From: Escherichia coli 042
GTDB lineage: Bacteria > Pseudomonadota > Gammaproteobacteria > Enterobacterales > Enterobacteriaceae
NCBI RefSeq assembly: GCF_000027125.1
Contig: NC_017626.1
DNA: 64,000 nucleotides
Strand: one strand, 5' to 3'
Made by a program: the position numbers and the translations under genes. This document shows positions 56,193 to 61,022 of the stretch, piece after piece. The first letter of the stretch is position 1; every line of letters begins with the position of its first letter. The notes under the pieces were generated by a model. That model was not told the DNA's origin. It saw only the letters and a list, made by a program, of their open reading frames with translations, and made no database searches.

Positions 56193-57122
56193 ATGTCCAA
56201 AAAGATTGCCGTGATTGGCGAATGCATGATTGAGCTTTCCGAGAAAGGCGCGGACGTTAAGCGCGGTTTCGGCGGCGATACCCTGAACACCTCCGTCTAT
56301 ATCGCCCGTCAGGTCGATCCTGCGGCATTAACCGTTCATTACGTAACGGCGCTGGGAACGGACAGTTTTAGCCAGCAAATGCTGGACGCCTGGCACGGCG
56401 AGAACGTTGATACTTCCCTGACCCAACGGATGGAAAACCGTCTTCCGGGCCTTTACTACATTGAAACCGACAGCACCGGCGAACGTACGTTCTACTACTG
56501 GCGTAACGAAGCCGCCGCCAAATTCTGGCTGGAGAGCGAGCAGTCTGCGGCGATTTGCGAAGAGCTGGCGAATTTCGATTATCTCTACCTGAGCGGGATT
56601 AGCCTGGCGATCTTAAGCCCGACCAGCCGCGAGAAACTGCTTTCTTTGTTGCGCGAATGCCGCGCCAACGGCGGAAAAGTAATTTTCGACAATAACTATC
56701 GTCCGCGCCTGTGGGCCAGCAAAGAAGAGACACAGCAGGTGTACCAGCAAATGCTGGAATGCACGGATATCGCCTTCCTGACGCTGGACGACGAAGACGC
56801 GCTATGGGGTCAACAGCCGGTGGAAGACGTCATTGCGCGCACCCATAACGCGGGCGTGAAAGAAGTGGTGGTGAAACGCGGGGCGGATTCTTGCCTGGTG
56901 TCCATTGCTGGCGAAGGGTTAGTGGATGTTCCGGCGGTGAAACTGCCGAAAGAAAAAGTGATCGATACCACCGCAGCTGGCGACTCTTTCAGTGCCGGTT
57001 ATCTGGCGGTACGTTTGACGGGCGGCAGTGCGGAAAACGCGGCGAAACGCGGGCACCTGACCGCAAGTACCGTTATTCAGTATCGCGGCGCGATTATCCC
57101 GCGTGAGGCAATGCCGGAATAA
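56193..57122 (+). CDS. kdgK: 2-dehydro-3-deoxygluconokinase KdgK (309 aa)
   Basis: pfkB-family sugar kinase with C-terminal TAAGDSFSAGY motif; start set at MSKKIAVIGECMIEL. Confidence 0.9.
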   Translation: MSKKIAVIGECMIELSEKGADVKRGFGGDTLNTSVYIARQVDPAALTVHYVTALGTDSFSQQMLDAWHGENVDTSLTQRMENRLPGLYYIETDSTGERTFYYWRNEAAAKFWLESEQSAAICEELANFDYLYLSGISLAILSPTSREKLLSLLRECRANGGKVIFDNNYRPRLWASKEETQQVYQQMLECTDIAFLTLDDEDALWGQQPVEDVIARTHNAGVKEVVVKRGADSCLVSIAGEGLVDVPAVKLPKEKVIDTTAAGDSFSAGYLAVRLTGGSAENAAKRGHLTASTVIQYRGAIIPREAMPE

Positions 57123-57678
57123 TGGTTTTTGACGGAGAACGGGTAGATATTCGTTCTCCGTTAATCGCCTTGCAGGGGTGAACCGAACTATGCTGATAAT
57201 TTGAAGTAAACTGCTGACGCATATCATTCAAACTACGCGTAAATTTAAGCGGGTTCTCACCTTTAATTTCGACCGTGACGAAGACATTCCCATTGTTGTT
57301 AAAGAAGCCAAAATAATAGTCATGTTGATGACGACGATTGGTTTTAAATTGACGAAATGATAAATAGCAGCGGTTATCGTAGGTAATTAAAAAATCATTT
57401 TCTCCGTATTCGTTTATCATCTTATTTTTCAGGCTACCATCGAAGAGCACTGCATACTTATCTTTGTCAGCAAATAATTCGGCATCAGTTTCTCGGTTGA
57501 TCGTGTTGACGCTGATACCGAATTCTATTTTTACCTTGTCTTTATCGATATTATTTCTTGTGCTGACATACATATTATTGGCATCCCAGAGTAAGAGAAA
57601 GTTTTTGTTGCAGGAATAAAGACCTGTTAAGCAAAGAATGACTGTTAGCAAGAATAGTATGCGTTTTTTGTTACGCAT
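57094..57678 (-). CDS. Hypothetical secreted or lipoprotein-like protein (194 aa), islet gene 5
   Basis: N-terminal signal peptide MRNKKRILFLLTVILCLTGLYSC with RBS caggag; Asn/Lys/Asp-rich and AT-rich; the 3' end reads through the kdgK terminator and 29 bp into kdgK. Confidence 0.55.
   Translation of the reverse strand: MRNKKRILFLLTVILCLTGLYSCNKNFLLLWDANNMYVSTRNNIDKDKVKIEFGISVNTINRETDAELFADKDKYAVLFDGSLKNKMINEYGENDFLITYDNRCYLSFRQFKTNRRHQHDYYFGFFNNNGNVFVTVEIKGENPLKFTRSLNDMRQQFTSNYQHSSVHPCKAINGERISTRSPSKTIIPALPHAG
57132..57161 (+). terminator. Hairpin after kdgK (candidate terminator)
   Basis: acggagaacg ggtagatatt cgttctccgt, 10 nt after the kdgK stop. Confidence 0.5.
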
Positions 57679-57739
57679 TTATACTCCTGAAAATGCGTTG
57701 AGGTCGCAAATATAATTAAATAGTCTGACATAAATAAAA

Positions 57740-58060
57740 TTAATTCCCTATCAATAATACATCTGCGACTTTTCTTGGTCCTTCGTAGATCTCAAATGCC
57801 TCGTACTTAGTCATCCATTGTTCAGGGGCGGTATCGAAAAGGAACTGAACGCACCCCATTGAAACGATACGTCCATCGGTTACATTAGGTTTTTCCAATT
57901 CAAAAACAACGCTCCATGCATTATTTTGCCAGTCAGTTTTCTCCTCTGGAAACCTGGAGACGGGATAATATCTACCGATAGGAGGTGCGCTCCTTCTGCC
58001 ACCTTCATTTTCTGTAAGCCAAACAACCTTTACACGATACATATGTTTCCATTCATTCAT
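57740..58060 (-). CDS. Hypothetical protein resembling EF-Tu domain III (106 aa), islet gene 4
   Basis: VVWLTENEGGRRSAPPIGRYYP and C-terminal FEIYEGPRKVADVLL align with EF-Tu domain III ([36 protein letters not shown]); starts 3 nt after the gene 3 stop. Confidence 0.6.
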   Translation of the reverse strand: MNEWKHMYRVKVVWLTENEGGRRSAPPIGRYYPVSRFPEEKTDWQNNAWSVVFELEKPNVTDGRIVSMGCVQFLFDTAPEQWMTKYEAFEIYEGPRKVADVLLIGN

Positions 58061-58063
58061 TAA

Positions 58064-58543
58064 TTAAATTAAGTGTGAATTATATAATATTGCCACCCCA
58101 TGCGATCTTTCCCATTTTAGTCCATCAACTAATAATGATAGAAAAGAATACTGGAAGCTTATATTTTTAATCACTTCTATTTTTTCATCATCTAATGACA
58201 AGATTACCCACCCCCCGTAATTTTTGCTAACCAGGTTGTTAATAAATTTAATTATAGGATTGGTTGAAATATCCTTTCCTTTATTCACAGCCATTTCCAG
58301 GTCATCGACTAAAGAACCATTGAAGTTGTAAACATGATATTCATTAAAGTCTATGTGCTCATCTAAAGGTGGGCCATAAGTAATCGGTAGATTGCATCTC
58401 TGCAAAAGATGATGATTACACCAGGCGTATACCGGAGGGTCGCGATGAAAGGTTTCCCCACCCCAGTGAACCATAACCTCTTGTAGATCTAGTTCCTCTG
58501 GAGCGAATCGTGTAGGGAGTAAAATATCCAAGTGAAAATCCAT
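58064..58543 (-). CDS. Hypothetical protein (159 aa), islet gene 3
   Basis: AT-rich ORF with no motif I recognise; translationally coupled to gene 4. Confidence 0.55.
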   Translation of the reverse strand: MDFHLDILLPTRFAPEELDLQEVMVHWGGETFHRDPPVYAWCNHHLLQRCNLPITYGPPLDEHIDFNEYHVYNFNGSLVDDLEMAVNKGKDISTNPIIKFINNLVSKNYGGWVILSLDDEKIEVIKNISFQYSFLSLLVDGLKWERSHGVAILYNSHLI

Positions 58544-58642
58544 AGCCTATCCTAAATTTGGCACCCATAACATAAACTGTGTAAGAATCAACGACTGCCC
58601 CCCCAAAAATGGGAAAATTTACTTATTATGCAAAGTTACTTA

Positions 58643-58897
58643 TTAAGAAGCCCATTCCTCATTTTTTGGCAAATAGCCCTTTCGCCAACAGGTCAGAATC
58701 TTAAAACTCGCTCGCAAATAAAATTTATTAGCCGAATCGTTTTTAACCATTCTGACTAATGTCATCTCACCCGTTCTTTTATCTATCACGAACTCGCCGT
58801 AATCAGATCTACAATAGTCAGAAGATGTAGGTCCAAATTCATATTTTACTACTTTATCAGTTTCTTCAATTTTCAATATTTCTATATGATAGGCCAT
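58643..58897 (-). CDS. Hypothetical small protein (84 aa), islet gene 2
   Basis: Start codon overlaps the stop of gene 1 by one nucleotide (TAATG); no recognised motif. Confidence 0.5.
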   Translation of the reverse strand: MAYHIEILKIEETDKVVKYEFGPTSSDYCRSDYGEFVIDKRTGEMTLVRMVKNDSANKFYLRASFKILTCWRKGYLPKNEEWAS

Positions 58898-59322
58898 TAT
58901 TTAACACCATCTATTGCCTGGCATCGTATACAGCTAAAACCAGTAGCTAAAATCTCAACATAACTATCATAACCTGCTATAATATAATGTTTTAACTTTA
59001 ACCGTTTTTTAGGGTCATATAATCTCTCTTTTTCTTCAAGCGGTACAGAATTCATTACTTGATATATACCGGAGTCCAGATTTTCACCATCAACCTTCTT
59101 AATAACAATATTGTTATAGTTGGCTTCATGAAAATTGACGGTAGCACACTTAACTTCAGCAACTGTAGTGAAGACCAGTTCAATTTGAACATAATCTTTC
59201 TCTGTTGATATTAACTCCAGAGCATCTACTTTAATGTTGACGCCATCAGACTCTGTATATGTTAAAGATAAATAAGTTGTGGAAATCCTGAATCCAATCG
59301 ATTGTGATTTTAACACAAGCAT
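58897..59322 (-). CDS. Hypothetical protein (141 aa), islet gene 1
   Basis: Start at the second ATG (MLVLKSQSIG), which has AAGGAG 7 nt upstream; C-terminal CIRC (CxxC); AT-rich. Confidence 0.55.
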   Translation of the reverse strand: MLVLKSQSIGFRISTTYLSLTYTESDGVNIKVDALELISTEKDYVQIELVFTTVAEVKCATVNFHEANYNNIVIKKVDGENLDSGIYQVMNSVPLEEKERLYDPKKRLKLKHYIIAGYDSYVEILATGFSCIRCQAIDGVK

Positions 59323-59525
59323 AAACTCACTCCTTCCAGTAGGCACAGGTATAATTTATTCAGCTAATAAATAATTAAACCCACTCTACGGTAAGTTTAT
59401 TTTAATAATGAATGGTTATCTGCGCGCTACCGCCGTGCCCGGAAAAATATCTGCGGTTATATCACGGTAACTAATTTATTACCGTTAATCCCGGCAGCGC
59501 AGAAGAAACGCTGCCGGGTTATTTA

Positions 59526-61022
59526 TTACTGTGCGGGGGGAATATCCGTCACTTCAGGATGTACGTCATCCGTGGCGACAGAGGTGGTCGCAGCGGCGGT
59601 AGATGGGGTCATGATTTGATCCCAGGCCGCCTGCAACGCTTTCATGTTAAATTCCGGCTCGCCTTTCGGCTGCAGAAGTATTAACGCCATATCATTCGAC
59701 AACTGCTGACGCAGATCCTGATTTAACATCTCCACCGTCAGGCTGTTAAGGAAGTCCTGGCGCAGTTTCTGATATTGCTCCGGCGCGATATCAACGACCT
59801 GATTTTGCAACGAACGCATCCGCTGACCCATCAGAATATCGGTATCAGCTCGCGCATAGGCGGCAAACAGTTTCTGCAGCTCCAGTTTCTTTTGCGCCAC
59901 TAACGCATTGAACTCTTCTTCCGGCAGACCTTTATCGCGAACCTTCGCCAGTTCACGCGCCACCAGATTAAGGTTGCTGCTCAGCTTGTCGTTTGGTGAT
60001 TCGATGTTAATGGCACACTGCGCACGCAGATACAGCACACGACAGTCAAATCCAAGACCGATATCTTTGCTGTTACTGGCGCTTAACGCTTGCTGAACAT
60101 GCCAGAACAGCGCCTCACGGGCCAGGTCCGCACGCCAGTAGCGCAGCAGTGCGGCTGATTCACGAATCGGCTGCCACGGCGTATCCCACATGATTGATAA
60201 CCGGTCCTGACGCACCGCGTCAGTCATAATACTCACCGCTTCCGCACGCAGCGGAGAAAGCGTCGGCACCGGAGCCGGTGTTTCACGTTTGCCTTTCAGT
60301 TCGCCAAACGTTTTATTGATTTGGTCGACGACCGAGCGCGCATCCACGTTTCCCACCACCAGCAGCGTCATTGCATCCGGGGTATACCATTTCTGATAGA
60401 AATCTTTAATCTTTTCCGCTTCAACGGGTTGTTTCAGCGGATCGGCAGGATCGTGACCTAACAAGGTTGATCCTTTCAGACGATAGCGCCACCAGCCCTC
60501 TTTAGTATCGGCAGGCCAGGTTGCCACCATGTCCTGACTTTGCAGCGCGTGGTTGATGGTTTCTGGCGTGATAGTCAGTTTGCCAGTGGCATTTGCCAGA
60601 TAAGAGAGCGCTTCTTTCAGCAAGTCGTTACGGTTATTGGGCAAACTCAGATTAAACAGCGTGGTGTCATAAGAGACAATTACCGGCGGCATCGGGCGTT
60701 TAGGGTCGATCCCCTGCTGCCACAATGAACGCGCCTGTGCTGCTTCAAGGCCACCGCTTTGCGTTAACGCAATACGAGGGATGGCGTGGCTGTAACCGCT
60801 CTGTTGTGTACTTTCGGCGAGCGAACCGGTATTAACCAGCAGGCGAATTTCAACACGATCGCTGGGACGCTGGGGTGTGGTCAGCACTTGCCACTGTAAA
60901 CCGTTGGAAAGCGTCCCCTGTTGCCATGCTGGATCAGGCTGGAGCGCATCTGCCTGCACATAGCCAGCAGTGGCCATCATCAGCAAACCGCCCGCTAAAA
61001 GTCGAATTTTTGTGCCCTGCAT
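59526..61022 (-). CDS. yhjJ: Periplasmic M16-family peptidase-like protein YhjJ (498 aa)
   Basis: Signal peptide MQGTKIRLLAGGLLMMATAGYVQA; length and position match yhjJ. Confidence 0.85.
   Translation of the reverse strand: MQGTKIRLLAGGLLMMATAGYVQADALQPDPAWQQGTLSNGLQWQVLTTPQRPSDRVEIRLLVNTGSLAESTQQSGYSHAIPRIALTQSGGLEAAQARSLWQQGIDPKRPMPPVIVSYDTTLFNLSLPNNRNDLLKEALSYLANATGKLTITPETINHALQSQDMVATWPADTKEGWWRYRLKGSTLLGHDPADPLKQPVEAEKIKDFYQKWYTPDAMTLLVVGNVDARSVVDQINKTFGELKGKRETPAPVPTLSPLRAEAVSIMTDAVRQDRLSIMWDTPWQPIRESAALLRYWRADLAREALFWHVQQALSASNSKDIGLGFDCRVLYLRAQCAINIESPNDKLSSNLNLVARELAKVRDKGLPEEEFNALVAQKKLELQKLFAAYARADTDILMGQRMRSLQNQVVDIAPEQYQKLRQDFLNSLTVEMLNQDLRQQLSNDMALILLQPKGEPEFNMKALQAAWDQIMTPSTAAATTSVATDDVHPEVTDIPPAQ

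Follow-up and report, generated by a model that had tools for sequence, protein, structure and literature searches.

In E. coli 042, an open reading frame (ORF) of 194 amino acids on the minus strand (57094-57678 of the window, the 64,000-nucleotide stretch of DNA that was analysed) reaches its stop codon, TAA at 57094-57096, only within the convergent gene kdgK, so that the 3' ends of the two genes overlap by 29 bp on opposite strands (57094-57122). This arrangement, which was present exactly as an earlier note on this DNA had described it, raises the question of where the C-terminus of the encoded protein comes from. The RefSeq/PGAP annotation of an identical genome gives the same coordinates (1695-2279 of L001 correspond to 57094-57678 of the window) and lists the product as hypothetical protein WP_001244699.1. 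As detailed below, the ORF is a real gene whose native stop was very probably removed by an old deletion, its tail being a by-product of the rearrangement.

Anatomy and conservation of the ORF

The ORF starts with an ATG, 6 nt downstream of a Shine-Dalgarno-like AGGAG read from the sequence (57684-57688, minus strand). Codons 1-23 (57610-57678, minus strand) resemble a signal peptide ending in the lipobox L-Y-S-C23, in line with the plausible signal peptide of the earlier note. The N-terminus, MRNKKRILFLLTVILCLTGLYS followed by C, conforms to a PROSITE PS00013-type lipobox rule; this rule asks for a basic N-terminal region, a hydrophobic stretch and the pattern [LIVMFWSTAG](2)-[LIVMFYSTAGCQ]-[AGS]-C with the cysteine at residues 15-35, and all of these parts are found in MRNKKR-ILFLLTVILCLTG-LYS-C23. 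The pattern occurs in all 11 enterobacterial alleles and in none of the 97 other (Bacteroidota-type) homologues; one allele of the ORF carries the name 'Lipoprotein' in UniRef, and residues 2-27 form a helix in the AlphaFold model. Judged by these features, the product would be a periplasm-facing lipoprotein. Three further parts can be distinguished on the minus strand, namely a conserved beta-sandwich core (codons 35-149; 57232-57576), modelled with confidence (pLDDT 86-97), a variable C-terminal stretch of the gene's own (codons 158-170, TSNYQHSSVHPCK; 57169-57207), which is the last part that alignments find in common with other alleles and over which pLDDT drops to 61-73, and a non-native tail (codons 171-194, AINGERISTRSPSKTIIPALPHAG; 57097-57168), set off by allele differences and by a pLDDT <50 over residues 174-194. 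The product is accordingly modelled as a small, N-terminally anchored beta-sandwich protein, with a lipobox in Escherichia.

The ORF is a real accessory gene under purifying selection. Pairwise allele comparisons gave pN/pS ratios of 0.10-0.47 for the core, with a core pS of ~0.5 between the window allele and the alleles of E. whittamii or S. flexneri. Altogether, 168 homologues were found, and the motifs of the family are invariant across more than 160 of them. In 166 near-identical genomes, the frame is intact and a good ribosome-binding site precedes it. It is hardly credible that such an ORF should be a decaying pseudogene or an annotation artefact from which no protein is made, even though it has no family annotation, is disrupted by an IS5 element in one strain and consists of AT-rich foreign DNA, which is often silenced; the selection on the core, the intact frames, the confident model and the invariant motifs all speak against this view.

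Taking one genome per species, the family is confined to Flavobacteriia-type Bacteroidota and Escherichia. Distant homologues align with the query only up to residues ~150-156, and their C-terminal motif, CNxPxDS, is missing from all enterobacterial alleles. Scans of the five islet proteins of the window with Pfam, NCBIfam and PADLOC detected no significant family, and a Pfam scan of all 108 members of the ORF family returned sporadic sub-threshold matches only. A profile search of PDB sequences with the family gave no match, nor did a Foldseek search of the ORF model against the PDB yield anything at E <= 0.001. Weak fold matches were obtained to TssJ, a lipoprotein of the type VI secretion system (T6SS; 3zhn, 6hs7), and to IglE (5amt), both of which are small transthyretin-like beta-sandwich lipoproteins; however, sequence identity to these proteins is 7-10% and there are no T6SS genes near the ORF. 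Literature searches for kdgK together with yhjJ, for TriTu or for the protein accession found nothing relevant.

A variable islet between kdgK and yhjJ

The left flank of the locus is the core gene kdgK, encoding 2-dehydro-3-deoxygluconokinase (56193-57122, plus strand). Directly after its stop codon starts an AT-rich islet (57123-59525; 36.7% GC vs 54-56% in the flanking genes), which stands in place of the unrelated 95-bp intergenic region of the K-12-type empty site. Besides the ORF, the islet holds four further small genes on the minus strand (57740-59346), which are co-directional with the ORF and yhjJ (57740-58042/58060, 58064-58543, 58643-58897 and 58897-59322/59346) and three of which have homologues in the version of the locus designated L010. 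A conserved stem-loop 3' of the yhjJ stop (59490-59518, minus strand) is present in every islet-bearing haplotype. The kdgK-yhjJ locus came in at least seven versions that differ in gene content, and the ORF is the only gene common to all islet-bearing ones observed. Among the islet types, that of the window, with the 194-aa form of the ORF, occurs most often (169 of 5,426 complete E. coli genomes), the islet being missing from 96% of E. coli genomes. Types containing a DUF3142 gene, in which the ORF has 176/177 aa, occur in 31 E. coli genomes, two of them with a 7-gene form. E. whittamii carries a single-gene form and S. flexneri a form of its own.

The earlier note had taken the end of the ORF for the left boundary of the islet and had suggested that an insertion junction removed the native stop or that the tail is fortuitous. 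The ORF indeed straddles the left edge, but the junction at which the stop was lost is internal to the islet, as the fuller forms L003 and L005 carry the DUF3142 gene and a convergent gene of 664/680 aa between the stem-loop that follows kdgK and the ORF, which stand 3.2 kb apart there. It is not a mobile-element insertion junction. The alignment with K-12 that had been proposed for defining an insertion point and a target-site duplication gave neither: the spacer is unrelated to the islet haplotypes, with chance matches of 9-10 nt only, and the search for target-site duplications and terminal repeats turned up nothing at the islet boundaries beyond short repeats of the kind expected by chance. 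Flanking repeats were limited to one imperfect 11-mer, the left copy of which is located 45 nt within kdgK, and no integrase or transposase is annotated in the window islet. Since the K-12 spacer has no sequence in common with any islet haplotype, the two are alternative alleles rather than an empty and a filled site. We therefore regard it as highly improbable that the islet was inserted into a K-12-like spacer and that the insertion itself removed the stop. The AT-richness of the islet (36.7% GC vs ~55%), its rarity in E. coli and the coincidence of its left boundary with the end of the ORF would fit such an event, but direct repeats at the boundaries, terminal inverted repeats and a recombinase are all lacking, the islet occupies the same locus in a relative that shares no more than 83-87% identity with the window in the flanking genes, and the stem-loop that separates kdgK from the ORF is part of the islet haplotype and lies far from the ORF in the fuller forms.

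The native end of the gene and the junction

The longest versions of the locus are L010 and L017, where the orthologous gene at kdgK-yhjJ encodes 171 aa and ends in ...SSCE(I/F)K with its own stop, two codons past a conserved Cys-Glu; the start codon of the following gene overlaps this stop (TAATG / ATGA). Between three and five additional small genes follow 3' of it and are gone from E. coli, where the L017-type array with the native stop was found in none of the 5,426 complete genomes. The homologue alignment suggested in the earlier note locates the end of the conserved sequence at codons 170-172: six alleles align as far as TGC AAG (+ATT) and then split into three unrelated continuations. 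In the window, the common sequence stops at codon K170 (57169-57171), possibly at I172, and codons 171-194 plus the stop (57094-57168) are made up of the junction, the stem-loop, a spacer and kdgK antisense sequence; the 24 codons come close to the ~25 that had been ascribed to hairpin and kdgK antisense. In the 176/177-aa form, the ORF runs 7 codons into the convergent 664/680-aa gene and ends 23 bp inside it.

From the allele comparison, the deletion junction can be placed at 57163-57168, where AAT adjoins a variable triplet. BLAST alignments of the ORF with L003-type genomes begin at query base 75, which corresponds to window position 57168. Codon 171 is GCG in the window and AAG, ATG or GTT in other lineages; these variants differ by 1-3 nt, whereas the adjoining stem-loop is invariant among the 194-type alleles. 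A single simple deletion is insufficient to account for this variation beside an invariant stem-loop. The ATTAAC of the window was also considered as a remnant of native sequence, given its resemblance to ATTAAATAA of L010, and this was rejected as TTAAT is the flank of the stem-loop in L003. There, the TTAAT flank stands 3.2 kb from the ORF.

The stem-loop downstream of kdgK

The stem-loop (57129-57164) lies directly 3' of kdgK, beginning 7-10 nt after its stop, and falls wholly within the last 24 codons of the ORF. Its arms (57129-57141 and 57152-57164) are 13 nt long and 92% complementary, and the predicted RNA folds have energies of -26.9 kcal/mol on the plus and -16.7 kcal/mol on the minus strand, with z-scores of about -5 (-5.1 for the plus-strand figure). 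Within the window it occurs only once, i.e. it was not found as a dispersed repeat. The earlier note had called it the kdgK terminator. A stable, GC-containing stem-loop soon after the kdgK stop does resemble an intrinsic terminator; however, there is no T-run after the stem on either strand (TTAATCGCC on the plus and CAAAAACC on the minus strand), a consensus terminator scan did not call it, and it is not the sequence that follows kdgK in K-12. The strong hairpin thus stands, while its label as the kdgK terminator is unproven. The hairpin was likewise considered as the end of the ORF's own transcript, which would yield a non-stop mRNA, and this was rejected because no U-run follows it on the minus strand. 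The stem-loop is confined to islet-bearing haplotypes, the sequence 3' of kdgK in K-12 being entirely different. L003 has an identical copy, which there stands before the DUF3142 gene and 3.2 kb from the ORF, and L005 and L017 have a diverged allele in which the pairing is retained.

The tail as a probable neutral appendage

The tail is not native to the gene and is very probably a neutral appendage. Tested on codons 171-194, purifying selection in the frame of the ORF was not seen within the overlap and extension: between alleles, 0-0.5 synonymous differences stand against 4.5-7.5 non-synonymous ones, counts that are small (5-8 differences per allele pair) but differ from those of the core (Fisher p = 0.001, 0.048 and 0.004), for which pN/pS in the same allele pairs is 0.10-0.20. 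In the frame of kdgK, the changes in the overlap are mostly synonymous, except in the last codon. The tail looks conserved because its DNA is constrained as a stem-loop and as kdgK. Nor is the 24-codon read-through longer than expected by chance, since 53% of the entry points into kdgK antisense sequence leave 24 codons or more open. The AlphaFold model shows the tail as disordered, which it probably is. The proposals of the earlier note that it is fortuitous or that a junction took away the native stop are both borne out, for a rearrangement junction, by the native stop in L010 and L017, by the lack of constraint on the tail and by the predicted disorder.

Homologues that share the tail, which the earlier note had linked to an ancestral overlap, do exist: the 194-type tail is also present in alleles from E. 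whittamii, S. flexneri and other Escherichia (82-85% protein identity). The overlap is therefore old and no strain-specific accident, yet the native stop of L010 and L017 indicates that it is not ancestral to the gene. Its age also bears on the idea that the tail or the overlap is functional and kept by selection, be it as a C-terminal extension or through antisense or convergent coupling of the islet gene with kdgK. We consider this very unlikely. The 24-codon frame has stayed open in four alleles (E. coli, S. flexneri, E. whittamii and Escherichia sp.) at a core pS of ~0.5, the stem-loop is invariant among them and the 194-type is the commonest islet type. However, virtually every difference in the tail is non-synonymous when read in the frame of the ORF, kdgK accounts for the conservation together with a stem-loop that is just as conserved at a distance of 3.2 kb from the ORF, disorder is predicted for the tail, the 176/177-aa and 171-aa alleles do without it, and chance alone would keep a frame open over this length in about half of all cases. 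That the 194-type junction has persisted without gaining a stop despite a core pS of ~0.5 leaves room for a tolerated or useful tail.

A proposed order of events

Loss of a stop codon at a deletion junction and the resulting convergent overlap are a well-known outcome of bacterial genome rearrangement. In the history that we propose, the DNA beyond codon ~170-172 would have been deleted in the E. coli-type haplotypes. In one form, the end of the ORF would have been joined to the 3' end of the convergent 664/680-aa gene, giving the 176/177-aa product. In the window form, the 664/680-aa and DUF3142 genes would have been lost as well, such that codon 170-172 meets the stem-loop behind kdgK, a junction with which a 3-nt AAT microhomology is compatible. 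Lacking its own stop, the frame stays open through the stem-loop to the first in-frame TAA, 29 nt into kdgK antisense sequence. As in other cases of C-terminal remodelling by stop loss, the native stop is gone, the frame runs to a chance stop and the extension is unconstrained and disordered; the convergent 664-aa neighbour was remodelled at a similar junction, ending in TTLINR vs KKDLKK before its stop. The case differs in that the junction is unusually old and stable, being shared by E. coli, S. flexneri and E. whittamii, and in that the extension crosses a strong stem-loop.

The order of these deletions might also be reversed. The ORF abutting the stem-loop and kdgK, as in E. whittamii, would then be the older state in Escherichia, and the DUF3142 and 664/680-aa genes would have been inserted later, cutting the tail to VISSDPS and a stop; the tail would still be non-native in comparison with L010 and L017, although the window form would not have arisen by deletion. 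We consider this order unlikely. It would accommodate the single-gene form in E. whittamii, whose flanks have diverged as is typical of a species split (kdgK pS 0.31), as well as the strong differences between the two tail classes in codons 158-170, which make both classes old, and the fact that codon 171 varies in 194-type alleles and is uniformly GTT in 176/177-type alleles. L017, on the other hand, holds the DUF3142/664-aa pair (94.7% identical to that of E. coli WL297) together with the native-stop ORF and five more genes, so that the pair coexists with an un-truncated array. In addition, the ATT after codon 171 is common to the 176/177-aa and 194-aa classes and is not found there in L010 and L017, a pattern that fits a passage from the 177-aa to the 194-aa form via the AAT microhomology. 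We infer from these two points that the deletions probably occurred in the order given above.

Immunity-like gene content

Carrying small, co-directional genes in a set that changes from strain to strain, kdgK-yhjJ resembles the immunity arrays of polymorphic toxin systems ('orphan immunity'; SUKH/SMI1-KNR4, Imm11, TriTu), in which small, co-directional, AT-rich genes vary between haplotypes. Among related versions of the locus, L010 encodes a TriTu immunity protein (E = 2.9e-18, 65.9 bits vs a cut-off of 27), and weaker matches were obtained to SUKH-1 (L010; 20.6, below the Pfam cut-off of 25.4) and to Imm11 (L012; 21.8, just below the cut-off of 22.1). In Tenacibaculum, a homologue of the ORF lies within an array of small unannotated genes. 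In contrast to known arrays, the ORF and the four other genes of the window match no immunity family, and no toxin-like gene was found in or next to the window islet. By this analogy, our best guess, and a weak one, is that the ORF may encode a membrane-anchored immunity-type protein in a polymorphic array. A bolder reading would make it the anchor gene of an undescribed hypervariable immunity-type island and the founder of a new family of envelope-anchored beta-sandwich proteins that protect from an envelope-acting toxin; the distribution over Bacteroidota and Escherichia would then imply a transfer between phyla, followed by the gain of the lipobox. We regard this reading as doubtful.

Implications

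The results call for caution in annotation, as the 24 C-terminal residues of WP_001244699.1 and its relatives are a rearrangement by-product that lies outside the family; residues beyond about 157-170 are best left out of alignments, domain models and expression constructs. The kdgK-yhjJ locus lends itself as a case study of nested deletions in a variable array, which would here have reshaped the ends of two convergent genes, and it also illustrates how long accidental tails can persist. The constant gene of the locus is a member of an un-named family known otherwise from Bacteroidota, and the hypervariable array around it, with its immunity-like content, may be of interest for interbacterial antagonism.

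Anatomy of the islet and its last gene

The AT-rich islet of E. coli 042 (57123-59525; 2.4 kb) is flanked by kdgK (56193-57122, + strand) and yhjJ (59526-61022, - strand) and has a GC content of 36.7% versus 54-56% in the flanking genes. It contains five small genes, all on the - strand in the direction of yhjJ, the last of which is the lipoprotein-like 194-aa ORF (57094-57678). PGAP calls the identical frame in an identical genome (hypothetical protein WP_001244699.1). The other four genes (57740-59346, - strand; about 100, 159, 84 and 141-149 aa) gave no family matches; three of them have homologues with 77-88% identity in the related locus L010.

As described in the earlier note, the ORF runs through a hairpin into kdgK: the overlap is 29 bp, and a stem-loop with 13-nt arms (57129-57164; -26.9 kcal/mol on the + strand, -16.7 on the - strand, z about -5) lies within the ORF. 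Codons 171-194 (57097-57168), referred to here as the tail, run from the junction triplet through the stem-loop and a spacer of 6 nt into kdgK, of which they take up 26 nt in antisense. The name kdgK terminator given to the hairpin calls for care: no T-run follows the stem-loop, a terminator scan gives no call there, and it is not the K-12 terminator, the 95-bp kdgK-yhjJ spacer of K-12 being wholly different in sequence with two hairpins of its own.

The last 13 nt of kdgK (57110-57122) show four differences to K-12, KFu014, E. whittamii and S. flexneri, and the final KdgK residue is A, E, Q or K depending on the haplotype; the variable region therefore starts within the final codons of kdgK. 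At the other end, about 110 nt adjoining the yhjJ stop (59416-59525) bear no relation to K-12 and are kept in all haplotypes with an islet, even in the distant L010. They comprise a stem-loop (59490-59518; -24.2 kcal/mol) plus another, small inverted repeat, and the terminator of yhjJ as well as the array's entry probably lie within them.

The ORF is a real gene

A search of 5.8 billion proteins returned 168 homologues of the ORF, and an AGGAG motif is located 6 nt 5' of its ATG. Between the alleles of E. coli, S. flexneri, E. whittamii and other Escherichia, pS was about 0.26-0.58, with pN/pS values of 0.10-0.32 over residues 1-158; the value for the near-identical WL297 allele, 0.47, rests on only 12 differences. 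An AlphaFold2 model from a 108-sequence alignment (mean pLDDT 82.7) shows a helix at the N-terminus (residues 2-27), followed by a beta-sandwich (residues 35-149) with pLDDT values of about 86-97. The N-terminus, in which the earlier note saw a plausible signal peptide, fits the PROSITE lipobox rule in 11 of 11 enterobacterial alleles and in none of the 97 non-enterobacterial homologues, where it is plain hydrophobic. The ORF is thus a real gene. In E. coli LR-58-2, which carries a window-type islet, an IS5 lies within the 3' part of the ORF (L006, 4952-6380), and PGAP annotates the remnant as a pseudogene without C-terminus, so that this strain, at any rate, can do without the gene.

Where the native gene ends

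The end of the conserved protein was sought by homologue alignment, as the earlier note had proposed. At the DNA level, six alleles are colinear through TGC AAG (C169, K170) and an invariant ATT, beyond which they split into three unrelated continuations: the native stop and the next gene in L010; the antisense of the end of the 664/680-aa gene in the 176/177-aa class, with the tail VISSDPS-stop and a 23-bp overlap; and the stem-loop plus antisense kdgK in the 193/194-aa class. In BLAST searches of KFu014-type genomes, bases 1-74 of the query find a separate match elsewhere in the record, and the match to the ORF begins at base 75 (window 57168). Since colinearity ends at about K170 and the BLAST match breaks there, the E. 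coli-type ORFs of both classes have no stop of their own, and the tail is not native to the gene. In distant homologues, the similarity stops at about residue 150-156.

Codon 171 (57166-57168) is GCG in the window and S. flexneri, AAG in E. whittamii, ATG in E. coli L020 and GTT in all 176/177-aa alleles. The variants are 1-3 nt apart next to an invariant 36-nt stem-loop; junction filler or repeated events are possible sources.

Gene contents at kdgK-yhjJ and origin of the junction

At least seven gene contents were found at this one chromosomal site. The great majority of 5,426 complete E. coli genomes are of the K-12 type without islet. The window type (kdgK, stem-loop, the 194-aa ORF, four genes, yhjJ) occurs in 169 genomes, the KFu014/SMS-3-5 type (kdgK, the same stem-loop, a DUF3142 gene, a 680-aa gene, a convergent 176-aa ORF, yhjJ) in 29, and the WL297 type, which combines the KFu014 layout with the four genes of the window and a 177-aa ORF, in 2. 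In E. whittamii, a 193-aa ORF is the sole islet gene, between kdgK with the stem-loop and yhjJ; S. flexneri has a 193-aa ORF and two different upstream genes. In L010 and L017, assemblies from public sequencing runs, the gene has 171 aa, ends in ...SSCE(I/F)K and has its own stop, overlapping with the following gene's start (TAATG in L010, ATGA in L017); three (L010) or five (L017) small co-directional genes and then a convergent neighbour follow. As yhjJ and kdgK of L010 are 83-87% identical to those of the window, the islet is present at this site in a more distant relative. The kdgK-DUF3142-664-aa block of L017 is 94.7% identical to that of E. coli WL297.

The DUF3142 gene overlaps its 664/680-aa partner, which has weak TPR matches, by 14 bp (L005 1771-4960; L003 2726-5960), and the pair occurs as two alleles of only about 86% identity at one site in 31 E. 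coli genomes. In S. flexneri contigs (L011/L012, 2062-5435), yhjG (AsmA family) directly follows kdgK at a distance of about 380 bp, and these contigs lack pdeH (yhjH), which the window and other E. coli have.

About 2.6 kb that L017 has are missing from the 176/177-aa class: the final two codons of the ORF, five genes, and six codons at the end of the 664-aa gene. At the join lies a 21-nt segment, aagaaggatctgaagaaataa (L005 4940-4960; L003 5940-5960), absent from L017 and L010, which codes for the ends of both convergent genes, KKDLKK-stop on one strand and VISSDPS-stop on the other; the C-terminus of the 664-aa protein is also remodelled, from TTLINR-stop to KKDLKK-stop. The window class additionally lacks the DUF3142 and 664/680-aa genes. 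It would have arisen by deletion across a 3-nt AAT microhomology, which fits both the KFu014 breakpoints (left ccgttAAT/agtttc, right gaagaAAT/aaccttgcagg) and the window junction (ccgttAAT-cg-ccttgcagg). We infer that the deletions took place in this order; the reverse, insertion of the DUF3142 and 664/680-aa pair into a single-gene form like that of E. whittamii, appears rather unlikely. Whichever the order, the tail is foreign to the gene. The earlier idea that the stop was lost at an insertion junction thus holds as to the loss at a junction, but this junction stems from an old deletion internal to the islet.

Comparison with K-12 yielded no insertion point: its spacer shares no sequence with any islet haplotype, which makes them alternative alleles of the whole intergenic region rather than an empty and a filled site, and the islet comes with neither a transposase or integrase nor a target duplication or terminal repeats.

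Conservation of the tail

Four distinct alleles of the 193/194 type have the tail in common: that of the window, that of E. coli L020, that of S. flexneri L012 (matched by Escherichia sp. L022) and that of E. whittamii L009. This makes the junction an old one; pS between window and E. whittamii is 0.31 for kdgK and 0.49 for the ORF core. Such sharing, named in the earlier note as a sign of an ancestral overlap, goes part of the way towards refuting a junction artefact, but the pattern of substitutions speaks for the contrary. Pairwise, codons 171-194 have 0-0.5 synonymous versus 4.5-7.5 non-synonymous changes, compared to 44-47 versus 20-38 in the core (Fisher p = 0.001, 0.048 and 0.004). Read in the frame of kdgK, all changes in the overlap but those in the last codon are synonymous. 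The stem-loop codons of the ORF are invariant, and in KFu014 the same stem-loop is equally conserved though non-coding and 3.2 kb from the ORF. A diverged stem-loop allele in WL297 and L017 keeps its pairing; pairing is perfect in both alleles of this post-kdgK stem-loop, ACGGAGAACG...CGTTCTCCGT (window 57129-57164) and GCGGAGAAATT...AATTTCTCCGC (L005 1685-1717, L017 7750-7790), an indication that selection acts on the structure itself, though it has no T-run. Entry into antisense kdgK is expected to leave the frame open for 24 codons or more at 53% of entry points, and residues 174-194 are modelled at pLDDT < 50. The pattern points against selection on the tail, whose conservation is borrowed from kdgK and the stem-loop. 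Together with the three continuations after K170 and the low pLDDT, the non-synonymous excess agrees with the earlier proposal of a fortuitous C-terminus.

Family distribution and possible function

Counting one genome per species, the family occurs in about 24 Bacteroidota (Flavobacterium, Tenacibaculum, Aquimarina, Chitinophaga and others) and Escherichia, and in no other Proteobacteria; beyond these, only two metagenome-assembled contigs, labelled Collinsella and Actinomyces, have a member. The Collinsella-labelled contig (L021, JAIJJM010000440.1, 2.8 kb) encodes a product 100% identical to that of the ORF, has the junction into kdgK in the same form and is almost certainly an E. coli contig mis-binned into a Collinsella MAG; the 'Actinomyces viscosus' MAG match (L035) may be a similar case. 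In Tenacibaculum, the homologue lies within a long run of small unannotated genes, and in another Bacteroidota genome after a Fic-domain gene.

Among the related versions of the locus, L010 has a clear match to a TriTu immunity protein and a sub-threshold one to SUKH-1, and L012 a near-threshold match to Imm11; the array differs cassette by cassette among haplotypes. By its appearance, the site between kdgK and yhjJ would be a hypervariable array of immunity-type genes. That the ORF product is an envelope-anchored protein of such an array, acquired from Bacteroidota and converted to a lipoprotein, is a tentative idea to which we give little weight at most. The observation in the earlier note stands. 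Its interpretation was right in substance, as the tail is fortuitous and the native stop was lost at a junction, and wrong in detail as to the kind of junction, the identity of the stem-loop and the tail, which close homologues share. The read-through is an unremarkable side effect of rearrangement at a hypervariable site; in practice it matters mainly for annotation, where the 194-aa product is 24 residues too long.
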